64,000 nt of DNA from an uncultured delta proteobacterium (lineage in GTDB: Bacteria > Desulfobacterota > Desulfobacteria > Desulfobacterales > SG8-13): contig CAWKCK010000005.1 of assembly GCA_963848135.1 (NCBI GenBank), positions 496,001 through 560,000 of the forward strand, in the 5' to 3' direction. The notes beneath the pieces are model-generated. The model searched no databases, had not been told where the DNA came from, and was given only the letters and a program-made list of their open reading frames with translations. Shown here one piece after another: positions 24,809-46,369 of this stretch. Each line of letters opens with the position of its first letter. Positions within the stretch are counted from its first letter, which is position 1. Both the position numbers and the translations under genes were made by a program.

Positions 24809-25312
24809 ATGCGGAAAACATTCTTCGTTATTTTATCGATTTTTGCAATATTTTCTACAGGTCAAACAAACGCTCGTGCTGATGGTTATATAATGGTTAT
24901 TGGCGATGATGTGAATATTCGATTAGAACCAAACACCAATTCAACCGTCATAGCGAAGAGCCAGAAAGGAGATATTTTCAGATTAGCTGAATTGGAAGGC
25001 GATTGGTATTCGATATACATGTTTAGTGGTGAGAAACGATATATATTTAAATCTCTGACGGATAAAATAAATGCAGTGCCCGAATTGACCCAATCGATCG
25101 AAACGAAGAAAAAAGTGTACAGAGAACTTTCTGACGCCAAAGTAAGAGCGGCAAATGAATCATATGCAAAATATCCAAATGATATCTTTAAACAGATCGA
25201 TTTGGAACGTCGATTAAACGACAGTTATAAATTGCCTGCTTTTCAAAAACACACCATACCGCCGGCAAGTTATCACAAGCTAATGGGAGAAGGATTAAAG
25301 AATAATTGGTAG
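24809..25312 (+). CDS. exported SH3b-domain protein
   Basis: Signal peptide; VNIRLEPNTNSTVI...GDWYSI; GAGGAG RBS; AT-rich. Confidence 0.75.
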   Translation: MRKTFFVILSIFAIFSTGQTNARADGYIMVIGDDVNIRLEPNTNSTVIAKSQKGDIFRLAELEGDWYSIYMFSGEKRYIFKSLTDKINAVPELTQSIETKKKVYRELSDAKVRAANESYAKYPNDIFKQIDLERRLNDSYKLPAFQKHTIPPASYHKLMGEGLKNNW

Positions 25313-25350
25313 TGCGCAACACTTAATTTGTCCCGGAACAAATAACGGGT

Positions 25351-26079
25351 ATGAAGCTGATGAGGAAAAAAAACGTTCTGATCATCGAGGACGATGCCAA
25401 CACCGCCGATCTCGTGGCGCTTTATCTCCGGCGTGAAGGGTTTCGGGCCCTGACGGCCAACGACGGTGAGCAAGGCCTGGCCCTGGCAGAACGTAACCGC
25501 CCGGATCTGGTGGTCCTTGATTTGATGCTTCCGAAGGTAGATGGTTGGGAGGTTTGCCGCCGGTTGCGGCAGATATCGGATGTACCGGTTATCATGCTGA
25601 CGGCCAGAGATGAAGAGATCGACCGCGTCGCCGGACTCACCCTGGGCGCAGACGATTATGTGGTCAAACCCTTCAGCCCCCGGGAATTGGTGGCGCGGGT
25701 AATCGCCGTGCTTCGGCGTGCGCGGCCTTATGAAAACGCCCCCGGCAAAGTGCGACACCAAGGCAATGTTCTATTAGATCTCGAGAAACGGCAGCTCTAC
25801 GTCCGTGGCCACGCAATCGACCTGACACATCATGAGTATACGCTACTGGAAGCGCTCATGAGTGCACCTGGCAAAGCCTTTACCCGTGACGAACTGCTTG
25901 ATCGCATTTACCCCCGGGGAGAAGCCGTGGTCATCGATCGTGTTGTGGACGTGCATATCGGTAAACTACGCAAAAAAATCGAAACCGATCCTACTTATCC
26001 AAGTTATATTCTCACTGTTCGCGGCATCGGCTACCGATTTGCCGAAAGAAAACCGTCCTCACCAGGGGTTTCCCAGTGA
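25351..26079 (+). CDS. OmpR/PhoB family response regulator
   Basis: IIEDD, DLMLP, GADDYVVKPF, VDVHIGKLRKK, TVRGIGY. Confidence 0.95.
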   Translation: MKLMRKKNVLIIEDDANTADLVALYLRREGFRALTANDGEQGLALAERNRPDLVVLDLMLPKVDGWEVCRRLRQISDVPVIMLTARDEEIDRVAGLTLGADDYVVKPFSPRELVARVIAVLRRARPYENAPGKVRHQGNVLLDLEKRQLYVRGHAIDLTHHEYTLLEALMSAPGKAFTRDELLDRIYPRGEAVVIDRVVDVHIGKLRKKIETDPTYPSYILTVRGIGYRFAERKPSSPGVSQ

Positions 26080-27149
26080 ACCAACGCTTGATCTTCAAAT
26101 TGTTGGCCGTTCATCTTGTGGTGATTGCCTTTACCATGGCGGTGATGTGGTTGGTCATCGACACCCTTGCGGCCGGGTATTTCGTCACCTTGATGGAAAA
26201 GTATCATATCTCCCCTGAACCCGCTCACGAGATGTTCGTGAACGCCGTACATCGCTACTTGATATGGGCATGTCTGGCGGCCTTGACTCTGGCTGTGGTC
26301 CTCAGCTTCTTTATGATGCGACGTGTGTTGGCGCCTTTGACCCGAATGACTGAAATTACTCAGGAGATCGCCGCGGGAAACTTTTCCGCCCGTGTGCCCA
26401 AAGGGAGTAAGGACGAGGTCGGCAGACTCGCACAGGCGTTCAACTATATGGCCGAAAACTTAAAGAAGCTTGAAAATCTGCGCCGTTCGCTGATGATCGA
26501 CGTGGCCCATGAGTTACGTACCCCCTTGACCAACATTCGAGGCTATCTGGAAGCGCTCAACGATGGCGTCTTGCCACCGTCGAAGGAAACATTTTCTCTG
26601 CTGCAGAGCGAGACCATGCGGTTGGTGCAGCTCGTGGAGGAAGTCCTGCGGCTTGCCCGGGCTGATGCCGCCCAAAAAACCCTCAAATTTGAAAATGTCG
26701 ATTTATGCCAGGCCGTCCGCAAGGCCATCGAGCCCTTTTCGCAAAAATTCGACCAAAAAGAATTGACTGTCGACCTGCAGCTGCCGTCCTCCGGAGCAAT
26801 GGTGCCAACCGATCCGAACCGAATCGCCCGGGTGCTGCGCAGCCTGATGGACAATGTCGCCCGATACACACCTCGCAATGGCAAGGTGAAAATCGTTGTT
26901 GCGTTCGACGCCGACATTGTCCGTATTGACTTCATCAATTCCATACAGGAACTCGCGCCGAAAGATTTGCCCTATCTATTTGAACGATTTTACCGCGGCG
27001 AAAAATCTCGCTCCCGCCAGCACGGCGGCGCAGGCATAGGGCTGGCCATCGTCAAAGAGTTGGTGAAAGCCCATGGGGGTTCAGTTGGGGCCCAATTAGA
27101 CGGTGGCAATATCCGAATCTGGCTGACGCTCCCTAAGGGGCAAGCCTGA
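26076..27149 (+). CDS. HAMP sensor histidine kinase (BaeS-like)
   Basis: 2 TM segments, HAMP, AHELRTPL, FERFYRG, GAGIGLAIV. Confidence 0.95.
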   Translation: MNQRLIFKLLAVHLVVIAFTMAVMWLVIDTLAAGYFVTLMEKYHISPEPAHEMFVNAVHRYLIWACLAALTLAVVLSFFMMRRVLAPLTRMTEITQEIAAGNFSARVPKGSKDEVGRLAQAFNYMAENLKKLENLRRSLMIDVAHELRTPLTNIRGYLEALNDGVLPPSKETFSLLQSETMRLVQLVEEVLRLARADAAQKTLKFENVDLCQAVRKAIEPFSQKFDQKELTVDLQLPSSGAMVPTDPNRIARVLRSLMDNVARYTPRNGKVKIVVAFDADIVRIDFINSIQELAPKDLPYLFERFYRGEKSRSRQHGGAGIGLAIVKELVKAHGGSVGAQLDGGNIRIWLTLPKGQA

Positions 27150-27426
27150 TAGCGACATCCTAACACGGAATCTTGATCAATATGGAGGCTTTTGGGGCCA
27201 CTCGCACACCGTCAAACAAATTATCAGATGTGTGATCCCGCAAAGCGGGAGGCATTTCGAGGTGATGCGGTCATCAGTCGGCCGCGATCCTCTAATAATC
27301 ACGCTATAGCATGACCATGGAAGCTTCCGGTTGACCTGAAGTCAGAATTTACTTTGACCCAAGTTGAGCGTTTCATATTTTCGAAATATGAAAAGCAATA
27401 TATTTTACCCGATACCCCAGCCCAAA

Positions 27427-27466
27427 CTTCACACAATCTTTACATACCCTTTAAGCCCTCTTTAAG
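27427..27466 (+). promoter_or_regulatory. four direct repeats at 11-bp period, candidate OmpR-family operator
   Basis: CTTCACA (27427), CTTTACA (27438), CTTTAAG (27449), CTTTAAG (27460) upstream of msrAB. Confidence 0.65.
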
Positions 27467-27509
27467 CATCGGCCTTATATTTGATTATAAAAACAACGGA
27501 GGTGATGCC

Positions 27510-28703
27510 ATGAAATACACGATTTTCACAATAGGTGCCATTGCGGCCCTTTTTCTGACCGCCTACCAGGTAATGAGCATGGATGATGCCCAGAAAATGC
27601 AGCCATCCAGTAAAATACAACCCCAAAATACCCGGATGGCAGTTTTTGCCGGCGGCTGTTTCTGGTGCACAGAATCGGATTTTGAGAAAGTTGACGGAGT
27701 GATCGAAGCCATATCAGGTTACTCCGGCGGTCATGTGGTCAATCCCTCATACAAACAGGTGTCCGCAGGCGGCACCGGGCATACAGAAGTCGTCAAGGTG
27801 ATTTATGACCCGGCCAGAATCGATTACGAGGGCCTCCTGGATATTTTCTGGCGCAGCATCGATCCAACGGACACCGGCGGCCAGTTCGTGGATCGCGGAT
27901 CGCAGTATCGTAGCGCCATCTTCTATGTCGATAAACAGCAGCAGGCCCTGGCCGAAGCCTCGAAAGAAAAACTTGCGGCTTCAAGCATCTTCGCTCAGCC
28001 GATAGTCACCGAAATTGTGCCATTGGAAGAGTTTTACGAAGCCGAAGACTATCACCAAGATTACTACAAAAAGAACTCCCTAAGATACAAGTGGTACCGT
28101 TCGGGGTCTGGCCGGGATCGCTTCTTGGAAAAAGCTTGGGCAGATAGGCCATTGAAGATGAAGGAAAAGAAGATGAACACTATCCAAAAACAAATGCCGG
28201 GTGATGCCATGACCAATAGTTCCGCGTCAGGCCGCCGTTACGGCAAACCTGATGATGCCGAACTCCGCAAACGCCTGTCGCCCCTGCAGTATGATGTTAC
28301 CCAAAAGGGTGCCACCGAGCGACCATTCCAGAATGCGTATTGGGACAATCACGAGAGTGGCATTTACGTGGACATCGTTTCAGGGGAGCAGCTCTTCAGC
28401 TCGACGGATAAATTCGAATCCGGAACCGGCTGGCCCAGTTTTACACGCCCTCTGGAACCGGAGAATATCGTTGAAAAAACCGACAAAACCCTGTTCATGG
28501 TGCGAACTGAAGTCACTAGCAAGTATGCCAATTCACACCTGGGGCATGTCTTTGACGATGGACCTCCGCCCACCGGCCTGCGTTATTGTATCAACTCGGC
28601 GGCCTTGCGATTTATTCCTAAAGACGATCTTGAAAAGGAAGGCTATGGGGAATATGCCGCGTTGTTTGAAAAAATGCCCCGGATGAGTGTTAAGGAGGAT
28701 TGA
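27510..28703 (+). CDS. msrAB: exported bifunctional peptide-methionine sulfoxide reductase MsrA/MsrB
   Basis: N-terminal hydrophobic signal; [44 protein letters not shown]. Confidence 0.95.
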
Positions 28704-28705
28704 CA

Positions 28706-29011
28706 ATGAAATCTCATTGTATGGCCGCAGTGGCACTCTTTTTTCTGCTGTCGCTAACCTCGTTTGGAGTGGCAGATGTCGAGAATCCGCAACGCGTGGT
28801 TCTCTCTCAAGTCGTTTTTTTTGTACATTGATACGGTGTCGGCAGAGCAGCCCTGGAGGGGTTGCCTGGGGTTCGAAAAATATCCAGCGGCTTTCAAGGA
28901 TTTCGCGAGATCAACACGGTGCACTATGACCCTACTTTGATTTCTCCTGAACAAATGATCGCAGCTTTGAAGAAGGCCGGCACCTATATCGGCGTCGCTC
29001 ATGAAAAATGA
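28706..29011 (+). CDS. putative exported selenoprotein (101 aa, UGA codon 42), MsrA/HMA-like small domain
   Basis: AAGGAGG RBS, signal peptide, in-frame TGA at 28829 followed by 59 more sense codons; downstream hairpin. Confidence 0.75.
28847..28865 (+). promoter_or_regulatory. candidate bacterial SECIS hairpin
   Basis: GCAGCCC-TGGAG-GGGTTGC stem-loop starting 15 nt after the in-frame TGA. Confidence 0.6.
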
Positions 29012-29195
29012 ATGCGTCTTTCAGATGGGCACATGCAACGCGTGAAATGGCTGAGGTGGCGACTTGCGGAGCTTGGGCGGACGCCCGCTTTGACAGGCGA
29101 TGAGACACGGGCACCGCTGACGAAGGTGACAACCCTCTCACAGAAGGGCATTGCGAACCAAAGCACTTCAACCGGCCATGACCGTTTTAAGGTCA

Positions 29196-29465
29196 TCAAT
29201 CGTTGAGAAAGTAAATGTCCGGCTTATCGAGTACCCCTAATTTCTGCATCGTCTCTCGCAGCTCCGCAGAGTCGATAAATGCCTTTGCACGGTCGAGATC
29301 CTTAGCTTCGAAGAGGAGAACGACTTCATTTGAGTCGAGAACGCTGCGAAGAAGATTTTTCTCGCTGAGTCCCGCCTCGTTGCGTTTGACAAGATGGTTA
29401 TCGTACCCGCGTTTCCACTCCGAAAAGTCCCTCACCTTGTGTCGTACAAGTAAGTAGCTGGCCAT
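29196..29465 (-). CDS. small dimeric alpha-beta barrel ('cyclase'-like) protein
   Basis: VRHKVRDFSEWK...FEAKDLDRAKAF; start at MASY. Confidence 0.75.
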   Translation of the reverse strand: MASYLLVRHKVRDFSEWKRGYDNHLVKRNEAGLSEKNLLRSVLDSNEVVLLFEAKDLDRAKAFIDSAELRETMQKLGVLDKPDIYFLND

Positions 29466-29481
29466 TGTAAACTTCCTTTTG

Positions 29482-29796
29482 CTAATATTTGGGGAAAATG
29501 CCGCCCACAAGGGGTTCGTAGATCCGAAACTCGGCTTTTTCACCCAGCAATTCATCCACCTGATCTTGCAGGACGCGGCGTTCGTCACTGTTTAACCAGC
29601 GGTTCCAATCCTCTAAGCTGTTCCAGGTACTAATGACCAGGTATTCTCCGGAGCAATCCAGGCAGCGGAAAGTCCGTCCGGTTATGTATCCCGGTTGCAT
29701 GGTCGCAAGTGATCGCAACTTGACAACTAAAGGGGCGAGTCTGGCTTCTTTTTTCGAATCATTAAAAGTGCGCCTGATCAATACTGACACTGCCAT
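29482..29796 (-). CDS. antibiotic biosynthesis monooxygenase (ABM) domain protein
   Basis: QPGYITG, YLVISTWNSLEDW; AAGGAGG RBS. Confidence 0.85.
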   Translation of the reverse strand: MAVSVLIRRTFNDSKKEARLAPLVVKLRSLATMQPGYITGRTFRCLDCSGEYLVISTWNSLEDWNRWLNSDERRVLQDQVDELLGEKAEFRIYEPLVGGIFPKY

Positions 29797-32663: not shown

Positions 32664-32723
32664 GCCATATAACCAGCATTTCGCTCACCGTTACCATTAT
32701 TAAATACCGTGAAAGGAAAGAAA

Positions 32724-33638
32724 ATGCCGATCGATCTTCATGCATTTAAACCGGCCTATGAGAAATGGGTGAAAGAAAGCTTGCCGGAATTTCAGGCGGG
32801 AAGAATGACGGAAATTGTTAAAAAGTATCCGTTAATTGATTCGCAGGATGTGCCCTGGACCCCTTACACAGGTCAACCTTCAGCGCAGACCTTTGCTTTG
32901 GTTACCAGTGGCGGCCTCTACCTGAAAGACAGCCAACCGGCTTTCGACACCACCTCGATTCACGGCGACCCATCCTTACGGGAAATCCCCAAAGACGTGC
33001 GTCAAGAAGACATCGGCATCGCCCATGCACAATACGATCACAGTCTGGCGGAGGAGGACATCAATGTCATCTTCCCGATCCACCGCCTGATCGAGTTGGA
33101 AGAGGAAAAAGTCATCGGTAAACTAGTGAATACAAACTACAGTTTCAGCTATGTCAATGATGTGGTGACACTGGTGACCAAAACAATTCCGGAATTTATC
33201 TCGCGGATCAAGTCCGACGGCGTCGACGTTCTTCTGCTGGTACCGGTCTGACCCAAGTGCCATCAGACAGTTGGTCTGATTCAACGGATGACCGAGGAAG
33301 CCGGAATACCCACCATCTCCATGGGGAACATGCCCGACCGGATGGCGTTCATTAAACCACCCCGTGCCCTGCTGGTTAAATTCGGACGGGGCAGCATGTT
33401 TGGTGAACCGGGCAACGCAAAGCGCCAGCGACGAATTCTCCTGGATGCGCTGGAGGCCCTGAATACCATGACGGAACCGGGCACCATTCGTGAACTGCCC
33501 TATAAGTGGAAACGTCCTGATCCGATGGATCGATTCCTTTCGGAAATGATTTCTACGGCACGTCAGGGCCGGCGGCACAAAGACCGCTCACGACACACCC
33601 CAAAGCCAGCGCCCAATTTTAAAAAACATTTTATATAA
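32724..33638 (+). CDS. GrdB/PrdB-like selenoprotein (UxxC), 304 aa with Sec at codon 176
   Basis: ORFs 32709-33251 and 33288-33638 are in frame across TGA 33249: LLVPV-U-PKCHQTVG; ALVTSGG, GDPSLREIP, DINVIFPI motifs. Confidence 0.88.
33262..33280 (+). promoter_or_regulatory. candidate bacterial SECIS hairpin
   Basis: Perfect ATCAGAC-AGTTG-GTCTGAT stem-loop 10 nt after the in-frame TGA. Confidence 0.7.
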
Positions 33639-46285: not shown

Positions 46286-46369
46286 GGTTCCACGAAAAAG
46301 CCTAACCTGTCGTGAGACAGGGACGGAAAGCCACGGACCTTATAAAAGGTAGCCGGGTTGCCAAGGAGC
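46286..46369 (+). ncRNA. cyclic di-GMP-I (GEMM-I) riboswitch
   Basis: AACCTGTC-GTGA-GACAGGGACGGAAAGCC...TAGCCGGGTTGCC matches GEMM-I P2 (GNRA loop) and P3 architecture. Confidence 0.88.

Follow-up and report, generated by a model that had tools for sequence, protein, structure and literature searches.

Positions 28706..29011 of this stretch raise the question of whether an in-frame TGA, taken by standard annotation as a stop, is instead a codon for selenocysteine (Sec) within a single small gene and, if so, what a selenoprotein of this size might do. The stretch, referred to here as the window, is the whole of the DNA analysed: 64,000 nucleotides (nt) from an uncultured delta proteobacterium (GenBank assembly GCA_963848135.1, contig CAWKCK010000005.1). 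Coordinates are positions in the window, and all gene features are on the + strand. A sequence-only reading had proposed a hidden exported selenoprotein of redox or metal-binding type, on a fold like those of MsrA (methionine sulfoxide reductase A) and HMA domains, and possibly of an undescribed family. As checks it had named the residue at position 42 in homologues, conservation on both sides of the TGA, the presence of selA, selB, selC and selD, and structure prediction.

The gene (28706..29011, +) comprises 101 codons and a TGA stop at 29009-29011, and its read-through product is 101 amino acids long. Codon 42, the TGA at 28829..28831 (+), is assigned to Sec and is aligned with Cys or TGA in relatives. 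A ribosome-binding site, AAGGAGG (28692-28698, +), is evident in the sequence. It falls within the 3' end of msrAB and 7 nt ahead of the ATG at 28706, which itself lies 2 nt beyond the TGA stop (28701-28703) of the MsrA-MsrB fusion. A hairpin of the selenocysteine insertion sequence (SECIS) type, GCAGCCC-TGGAG-GGGTTGC, is located at 28847..28865 (+) and begins 15 nt past the UGA. The predicted signal peptide (residues 1-23) occupies 28706..28774 (+) and the folded domain of the AlphaFold2 model (residues 34-97) 28805..28996 (+). The gene is absent from the ORF (open reading frame) track because translation table 11 cuts its frame into a 43-codon and a 49-codon ORF. The ribosome-binding site, start codon, in-frame TGA and hairpin had all been claimed by the sequence-only reading, together with the lack of a second Cys in the mature chain and a second Sec gene in the window, and every one of them is present in the sequence. 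In a scan of window positions 25000-29500, promoter and terminator counts were at chance level.

The codon at position 42 was followed through relatives at three depths. In 301 genomes of the same order the read-through product matched 48 places in 40 genomes, and 42 of the 48 places carry an in-frame TGA; three of the 40 genomes gave weak matches without TGA. Thirty loci (the window's own and 29 others) were dissected, and all 30 have an in-frame TGA, the motif [V/F]-x-U-Y-x-V-G, a hydrophobic N-terminus and 57-65 residues past the TGA, with a purine run resembling a ribosome-binding site upstream of the chosen start in most. Conservation was found on both sides of the codon: F38 and V40 before it, and Y43, V45, G46, L50, G52, G55, G62, E68, T71, V72, L88 and T93 after it, are invariant in 30/30 sequences. 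A species-wide scan, with one genome per species, yielded 137 genome stretches confirmed as relatives. By record titles these come mostly from Desulfobacterota (many orders) and Nitrospirota, and all are from metagenome-assembled or single-cell genomes. In the best 80 of the 137 loci the site codon is TGA in 77, Cys in two (L128 and L140, both Nitrospirota) and CGA in one.

Public protein sets were also searched. A word-based search of 5.8 billion proteins returned six matches, none of them a correct full-length reading, and no Cys form. Four were post-TGA fragments; the other two were nearly full-length with Trp at the site, and one of these ends in Trp at the stop position of the family. Trp at both places is a signature of gene calling with translation table 4. 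An exhaustive profile search, which did recover Cys forms, gave 335 proteins at E <= 1e-3, and 151 stretches from the best 150 of these were aligned. Eighty stretches span the Sec column and the remaining 71 begin after it. The residue in the column is Cys in 49, Trp in 27 and another residue in four. Two of the 49 Cys rows are outgroups (P0154 and P0156), namely a canonical multi-HMA protein and the CFWTGE family described below. Several Trp rows extend beyond the C-terminus of the family through another Trp, and the 27 look like table-4 readings of TGA. By these alignments the family is one that exists as Sec and Cys forms with the same flanking residues. No CxxC was noticed in the 49 Cys forms, which were inspected by eye and not counted by script. 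A natural Cys homologue was represented in the ESM Atlas only by unnamed clusters with scores <0.9. Two candidates for longer fused forms were rejected as artefacts, one a table-4 read-through and the other a chimeric frame.

Some individual loci departed from the usual arrangement. The locus with CGA (Arg) at the Sec codon, L127, still has the SECIS-type hairpin, and the change may reflect recent mutation or an error of sequencing, or mark an inactivated copy. Two TGA-bearing copies of the family were found in the same genome in several cases (L081 and L104, on one chromosome; also G085, G107, G194, G228 and G285). In L036/L092, which lie on the same short contig, and in protein P0069, the N-terminus of a response regulator is in frame with the mature small protein and there is no signal peptide. 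This fusion may be an assembly chimera, or the result of a deletion between the regulator and the small gene.

The hairpin downstream of the UGA has a 7-bp stem and an apical loop UGGAG, or GGA if a U-G pair closes it. Folded alone, the 72-nt stretch after the TGA shows no gain in stability over shuffled versions (z = 0.13), so the single fold from the window proves nothing and the case rests on comparative evidence. This was drawn from 92 distinct 60-nt stretches, each beginning at the UGA. In these 92 genes, 87.1% of the cells that make up the 7-bp helix (columns 19-25 with 31-37) are paired; pairing falls to 23-55% when the helix is slid by 1-3 columns, and none of 500 shuffles matched the observed pairing or covariation score. 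Compensatory changes are few (four of the seven pairs, 24 cells). RNAalifold gave a weak consensus of five pairs at -0.87 kcal/mol; the hairpin is short, lies within conserved coding sequence and has undergone few compensatory changes.

Codon choice within the stem is nearly fixed. Ala 8, in the stem, is GCC in 88/89 sequences (third-base entropy 0.09 bits), Leu 9, at the edge of stem and loop, is CTG in 91/92 (0.00 bits), and Gly 11, again in the stem, is GGG in 82/92 (0.59 bits). Codons outside the stem are mixed, with third-base entropies of 1.66 bits at Val 4, 1.41 at Gly 5, 1.84 at Gly 14 and 2.00 at Val 18. These frozen stem codons are stronger evidence for the hairpin than the compensatory changes. 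Both genes with the Cys form use other codons at the stem and have no such hairpin. The apical loop, of the form UGGAx, is about 22 nt from the UGA. Loop and distance fit the published bacterial SECIS pattern. No Rfam SECIS family matched anywhere in the window.

The genome from which the window comes (6.03 Mb, 98.65% complete) encodes the machinery for Sec. All four components that the sequence-only reading had wanted confirmed exceed curated cut-offs: selA (622 bits against 268), selB (374 against 242), selD (372 against 125) and the Sec tRNA (76.5 against 47). The selD gene itself has an in-frame TGA. Elsewhere in this genome, outside the window, is a gene for a Sec-containing MsrA with the motif GUFWG behind a hydrophobic N-terminus (G000:C5:93656-93964 (-), L049). 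The putative second Sec gene within the window is a TGA-interrupted frame resembling 'selenoprotein B' of the GrdB/PrdB type (32709-33638, +; TGA at 33249-33251, context VPV-U-PKC), which stays below cut-off on the corresponding models (TIGR04483, 137 bits against 300; TIGR01918, 55 against 65).

The N-terminus of the product has the form of a signal peptide, with an n-region MKSH and a hydrophobic core at residues 6-20. The Kyte-Doolittle maximum over 12 residues is 2.62, and Lys or Arg precedes the core. The assignment of residues 1-23 follows this hydropathy pattern; cleavage is likely after G-V-A, from the small residues at -3 and -1. The pattern recurs in 29/30 members, and the single exception is a locus of which only the mature part was taken, where the N-terminus of a response regulator runs into it. 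Cys5 is within the signal peptide, and a Cys in the mature chain occurs in 0/30 members. The product is a genuine selenoprotein of about 78 mature residues, with a signal for export by the Sec translocon.

The AlphaFold2 model has a pLDDT of 85.6 overall and >93 for residues 31-100, with a low-confidence helix at residues 4-19. Its fold is beta-alpha-beta-beta-alpha-beta, made up of b1 (34-40), the loop holding Sec42 between strand 1 and helix 1, a1 (45-50), b2 (56-64), b3 (67-74, starting at Glu68), a2 (81-91) and b4 (94-97). In the standard topology of this fold, strands 1 and 2 would end, and strands 3 and 4 begin, at one common edge of the sheet, so that the invariant residues Sec42, Tyr43, Gly62-Phe/Trp63, Glu68 and Thr93-Tyr94 should cluster there. 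The structure prediction thus gave an HMA-type fold. In VIA-align the mercury-binding protein MerP (1osd) scored Z 10.8 with a root-mean-square deviation (rmsd) of 1.7 over 66 residues, and the top 50 rows are all HMA. Foldseek likewise placed HMA domains in its best rows (E ~3e-3), with ATP7B and CopZ among the structural matches. Its MsrA entries stood at E ~0.045 with low rmsd (1.4 over 76 columns for 2j89).

Every Pfam and NCBIfam (June 2026) match to the small selenoprotein stays below cut-off. The best NCBIfam match is sub-cutoff, to NF041383 (31.6 bits against 275, profile positions 141-204), and every member tested matches this profile at positions ~139-205. In NF041383, positions 1-139 make up a thioredoxin-like domain, which is also found alone. 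The C-terminal part of NF041383, here called the CFWTGE family, occurs in proteins of ~170 residues and in thioredoxin fusions of ~296 residues, and some members carry precomputed PF01625 matches. In the fusions the CFWTGE domain is joined to a thioredoxin-like domain with VPGC or VPGU, which points to a recycled redox Cys. The stretch of NF041383 that matches the small protein also matches the adjoining MsrA domain. The model of a CFWTGE protein (pLDDT 88.4) resembles MsrA: all 13 Foldseek rows at E <= 1e-3 are MsrA, the best being the Sec-containing MsrA of Clostridium oremlandii, and HMA first appears at rank 43.

Profiles of the four families were compared with hhalign. The small family is closest to CFWTGE (probability 97.7%, E 1.4e-12, 67 gapless columns), then to HMA (96.3%, E 1.6e-9) and MsrA (94.5%, E 7.6e-8). 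CFWTGE matches MsrA at 97.3% (E 2.6e-11) and HMA at 94.2% (E 1.1e-7), and MsrA matches HMA directly at 71% (E 3.6e-5). Because the links of the small family to HMA and to CFWTGE, and of CFWTGE to MsrA (E 1.6e-9, 1.4e-12 and 2.6e-11), contrast with 3.6e-5 for the direct comparison, the two families lie between HMA and MsrA. The sequences hint that the MsrA core may have arisen from an HMA-like domain by insertion and extension. A profile search of the PDB placed MerP first (E 0.004), with an MsrA at E 0.86. In the alignments Sec42 falls on the catalytic Cys of MsrA and on the second Cys of the HMA CxxC, as the sequence-only reading had placed it, and Glu68 corresponds to Glu71 of CFWTGE and to a Glu of MsrA. 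We take this MsrA Glu to be catalytic, as the titles of PDB entries 4lwl and 4lwm hint. Tyr94 could, as a conjecture, be equated with the second active-site Tyr of MsrA.

The order of genes in the window is response regulator, histidine kinase, exported MsrA-MsrB fusion and small selenoprotein gene. The fusion (27510..28703, +) has an N-terminal signal or anchor and matches PMSR (214 bits) and SelR (162 bits) in Pfam, and in NCBIfam both domains, msrA and msrB, score above cut-off; its start, ATG 27510, was chosen within an ORF from 27354. The MsrA part has GCFWC; the MsrB part has RYCINS but GTGWPSF at the usual motif of the resolving Cys. The only invariant Cys residues of MsrAB are C50 and C53, a CxxC-type pair in MsrA, and the catalytic C360 of MsrB. 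Matches to MsrAB with one in-frame TGA were seen in many related genomes (e.g. G058, G103, G119, G215 and G226), and these TGAs could mark Sec-containing MsrA domains in MsrAB fusions, or gene boundaries. The OmpR-type response regulator (25351-26079, +) and the HAMP/HisKA histidine kinase (26076-27149, +) were identified with Pfam, and their best NCBIfam matches, all sub-cutoff, are of the BaeS/BaeR type and of heavy-metal sensor types. The kinase has ~30 residues between its two N-terminal hydrophobic segments, as read from the sequence, and with so short a loop it may do its sensing inside the membrane or by way of an accessory protein.

Neighbours were collected at 79 loci, over 4 kb on each side where the contig allowed. 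The MsrAB fusion is present at 60/79, a histidine kinase at 52/79, a response regulator at 46/79, a SUOX-family molybdoenzyme at 12/79 and a YHS-domain selenoprotein (NF041384) at 6/79; eight of the 79 have none of these. With tblastn, which also detects partial genes at contig edges, an Msr gene was found at 62/79. The Msr genes are upstream in most loci and downstream in several, with the order MsrB-MsrA in a few, and the linkage also holds in Nitrospirota and beside both Cys forms. MsrP was considered for the SUOX-family neighbour and ruled out; because scores on the SorA/SoxC models exceed those on MsrP, with all of them sub-cutoff, the molybdoenzyme was not counted as a methionine-sulfoxide reductase. 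At 1/79 loci there is a heavy-metal P-type ATPase no more than 6 kb away, and mer or cus genes are not among the recurrent neighbours. Among the 301 genomes of the order, the MsrAB fusion is present in 175 and the small gene in 40, with both in 39 of these 40; the locus of the one exception holds Msr pieces broken by a masked run. These genomes are related and so not independent, and no statistic is attached to the co-occurrence.

Taken together, these observations make it somewhat probable (roughly 0.58) that the protein acts as a one-selenol redox catalyst or relay in an envelope module for the repair of methionine sulfoxide and oxidant damage. Recoding of UGA-42 to Sec, through the SECIS hairpin 15 nt downstream and the selA, selB, selD and Sec tRNA of the genome, is strongly supported. 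In the proposed scheme the gene would be co-expressed with msrAB across the 2-nt gap, probably under the adjoining two-component system. The selenolate would attack an oxidised sulfur, either a sulfoxide or a sulfenic acid on the MsrB of the adjoining exported MsrAB, which is without a resolving Cys. The attack would yield a selenenic acid or a selenylsulfide, and an external thiol reductant of the envelope would reset the small selenoprotein. It could thus be a minimal sulfoxide or oxidant reductase itself or, alternatively, a resolving partner in trans for the one-Cys MsrB. The selenol is placed at the N-terminal end of helix 1, a site that in MsrA belongs to the catalytic Cys and in HMA domains to the second Cys of CxxC, and Glu68 is invariant. 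The sequence-only reading had left redox and metal binding side by side. Its selenoprotein came through all three refuting conditions that it had named, on the residue at the site, on conservation past the TGA and on the Sec machinery. Its fold kinship held as well, the nearest relative being an MsrA-like domain, and the context as read from sequence favours redox over metal binding, given MsrA-like kin that occur as fusions with thioredoxin-like domains, the lack of a second Cys, the exchange of Sec and Cys and the lack of metal-transport neighbours. Sec/Cys exchange is typical of redox nucleophiles according to review PMC13188914.

Several points weigh against a redox role beside MsrAB. An Msr gene is out of reach at 17/79 loci (tblastn), and some of these carry a SUOX-family molybdoenzyme or a YHS-domain selenoprotein instead. 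No thiol reductant (DsbD/CcdA or thioredoxin-like) is among the recurrent neighbours. In the order sample, 136/175 genomes with MsrAB are without the small gene; since most relatives bearing MsrAB do without it, the small gene is an accessory and not an obligatory partner. The substrate pocket of MsrA is not kept: there is no Trp after the Phe, the Tyr of GY is replaced by Phe or Trp, and the C-terminal half is gone. Glu68 is not discriminating, because three of the six canonical HMA domains aligned share a Glu at this position. Lastly, the overall fold best matches the metal-binding HMA domain, and the HMA E-value is close to that obtained with CFWTGE.

A bolder form of the redox proposal can be put forward only tentatively, as a possibility short of an even chance. 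The protein would be the smallest self-contained catalyst of the Msr type, with a Sec-Glu dyad on an HMA-like scaffold of ~70 residues, reducing sulfoxides or scavenging hypochlorous acid (HOCl) or peroxide in the periplasm; with CFWTGE it would represent a living intermediate showing a common origin of the MsrA core and the HMA fold.

The alternative that survives best is a protein that, like MerP or CopZ, would chaperone or buffer metal, here in the periplasm. In this reading the selenolate, perhaps paired in a dimer, would bind Cu(I), Hg(II) or another soft metal and the gene would share a metal and oxidation regulon with msrAB. This is what the structural matches to MerP, ATP7B and CopZ, the first place of MerP in the PDB profile search and the hhalign probability to HMA would suggest. 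The sub-cutoff NCBIfam matches include the UxxU metal-binding selenoprotein, CopZ and MerP, the protein is exported as MerP is, the kinase reaches 197 bits (sub-cutoff) on a heavy-metal sensor model, and the YHS-domain selenoprotein is a neighbour at six loci. Sec is a metal ligand in other families, according to review PMC13188914. We nevertheless find a metal-binding role doubtful. The protein has one Cys/Sec only, and the first Cys of GMxCxxC is absent in 30/30 members, where the position three before Sec42 is variable and never Cys, and by eye in the 49 Cys forms. Where the Pfam HMA model demands 24.8 bits, the whole protein reaches 12.9 and the part after the TGA 14.5. The heavy-metal ATPase near one locus of 79, the lack of recurrent mer or cus neighbours, and a nearest relative that is MsrA-like and fused to thioredoxin-like domains also argue against it.

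An envelope oxidant sensor for the adjoining kinase, in which oxidation of the selenol would alter binding to the kinase and turn on msrAB, is improbable. It would suit a kinase with almost no periplasmic domain and the frequency of kinase and regulator genes among the neighbours. L090, L112 and L138 keep the two-component system and the small gene without MsrAB, and MsrAB does not require the small gene. At eleven loci, however, MsrAB and the small gene occur together while both kinase and regulator are missing from the surrounding 4 kb, a place at the 3' end of the regulated operon is unusual, if not prohibitive, for a sensor, and contact with the kinase would be a conjecture from gene order. 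Very improbable, in turn, is a sulfur or selenium carrier that would relay persulfide or perselenide to periplasmic sulfur-oxidising or -reducing enzymes. A single nucleophile at the N-terminus of a helix in a small alpha/beta domain would serve this purpose, and the domain may be similar to TusA-type carriers. In several of the 12 loci with a SUOX-family (SorA/SoxC-like) enzyme, that enzyme is directly upstream (e.g. L093, L109, L133 and L138). Against this, MsrAB is a neighbour far more often (at 60 of the 79 loci, compared with 12 for the SUOX-family enzyme), and the Pfam and NCBIfam scans gave no likeness to TusA, DsrE or rhodanese. The weakest alternative, that the TGA does end translation, as a genuine stop or through a nonsense mutation, so that the locus holds either a pseudogene or a 41-residue peptide followed by an ORF of its own, draws on public gene callers that give only the post-TGA piece (four of the six word-search matches, 71 of the 151 aligned stretches) and on a GTG (Val45) shortly past the TGA that they could use as a start, but has almost no chance of being right given a TGA in the same frame and column in 77/80 loci of two phyla, a signal peptide and strand 1 before it with the remainder of one domain after it, relatives with Cys at that codon, RNA-level selection on a conserved SECIS, and a complete Sec machinery.

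Elsewhere in the window, a c-di-GMP-I-GGC riboswitch aptamer was found at 46291-46366 (+), with 72.5 bits against a gathering score of 59.

The family appears to be undescribed, as had been suspected. Besides the lack of a library model over cut-off, Table 1 of the 2026 review PMC13188914, which lists 119 families, has no matching entry; the rows that come closest are those for NF041383, NF041115 and the Sec-bearing cation ATPase. No description of the family was found in the literature covered, including passages of PMC1976440, PMC12013277, PMC13326102 and PMC2398784; Haft & Tolstoy 2025 (mSystems), BSepDB and the deep-Sep/BSepDB supplements were outside this scope. The 'MerP' selenoprotein of the 2008 GOS paper (supplementary file 3) was considered and set aside as a different family, being a short fragment with Sec adjoining Cys in an unrelated context. 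On sequence grounds the window gene apparently belongs to a selenoprotein family that is new although its fold is known, has an unusual site with a single Sec and lies informatively between HMA and MsrA.

Annotation routinely loses selenoprotein genes, and this family is invisible or truncated in public protein sets, yet 137 genome stretches were confirmed. It would extend the catalogue of the prokaryotic selenoproteome and supply a model for annotation. It adjoins methionine-sulfoxide repair genes in bacteria of the sulfate-reducer type and points to an unstudied part of such repair in the envelope of anaerobes. The exported MsrAB here has neither a thioredoxin-like domain nor a resolving Cys in MsrB, and the small protein makes the question of its recycling testable. 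Neisseria PilB carries the thioredoxin-like domain that exported MsrAB of the window type is without. The family also offers a very small Sec/Cys scaffold for studying the preference for selenium at a site with a single nucleophile.

Several known systems can be set beside the small protein. TsoY (NF047643, motif UxxV) and the DG, DW and DF proteins (NF049953, NF041197 and NF049942) gave no NCBIfam match at E <= 10, a limit to be read with the HMMER filters in mind, which drop most matches above ~0.1. The 'UxxU' metal-binding (seleno)protein NF041115 is also small and HMA-like and matches below cut-off (28.8 bits against 95, positions 18-66). It has two Sec residues, whereas the window family has one Sec followed by Y-D/G-V (U-Y-G-V in the window). 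Another catalogued likeness is the Sec-bearing cation-transporting ATPase, with a UxxC that we take to lie in its HMA domain. The UxxC motif is given in review PMC13188914. The HMA domain itself (PF00403) has the same predicted fold, and MerP is exported like the window protein, with Sec42 falling on the second Cys of CxxC; the window family has no GMxCxxC motif.

In MsrA (PF01625), as in the window protein, the nucleophile comes after strand 1, where helix 1 begins, and the next residue is aromatic. Its distances to G-V, G-Y/F and E-x-x-x-V-x-Y-D-P are identical once the 17-residue insert of MsrA is removed, and the 26 residues between Sec42 and Glu68 equal the spacing of Cys50 and Glu93 in MsrA minus that insert. 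The window protein is about half the size, without the insert and without the C-terminal half. Where MsrA has GCFWG or GUFWG, the window protein has H-U-Y-G-V and the family x-U-Y-D-V-G, with no Trp of the CFW type. The Pfam scan gave no PF01625 match at E <= 1, and the NCBIfam MsrB/A models gave 11.6 bits against 330.

The closest comparison is with the CFWTGE domain of NF041383, which is 'OS_HP5' in the table of the 2026 review and shares the same layout of strand, Cys/Sec, aromatic residue, helix, G-V, G-F/W, R-E-x-T/N-x-V-x-Y-D-P and helix. NF041383 is named as the VPGUxxT family thioredoxin-like (seleno)protein, type 2, and the window protein is without its VPGU/VPGC domain. By our reading, the motif for which the Sec of NF041383 is named lies in the thioredoxin-like part (VPGC in fused Cys forms) and is not the site of the small protein. 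The window family has U-Y-D/G-V-G where the CFWTGE family has C-F-W-T-G-E, and is without the C-terminal extension of ~70 residues (YRxAPxSDQKKQ...) of the CFWTGE proteins. The CFWTGE model is closest to MsrA structures, whereas that of the window protein is closest to HMA domains. From its alignments and its model, the window protein is best described as a stripped-down MsrA-core/HMA-like domain that keeps the pair of nucleophile and acid.

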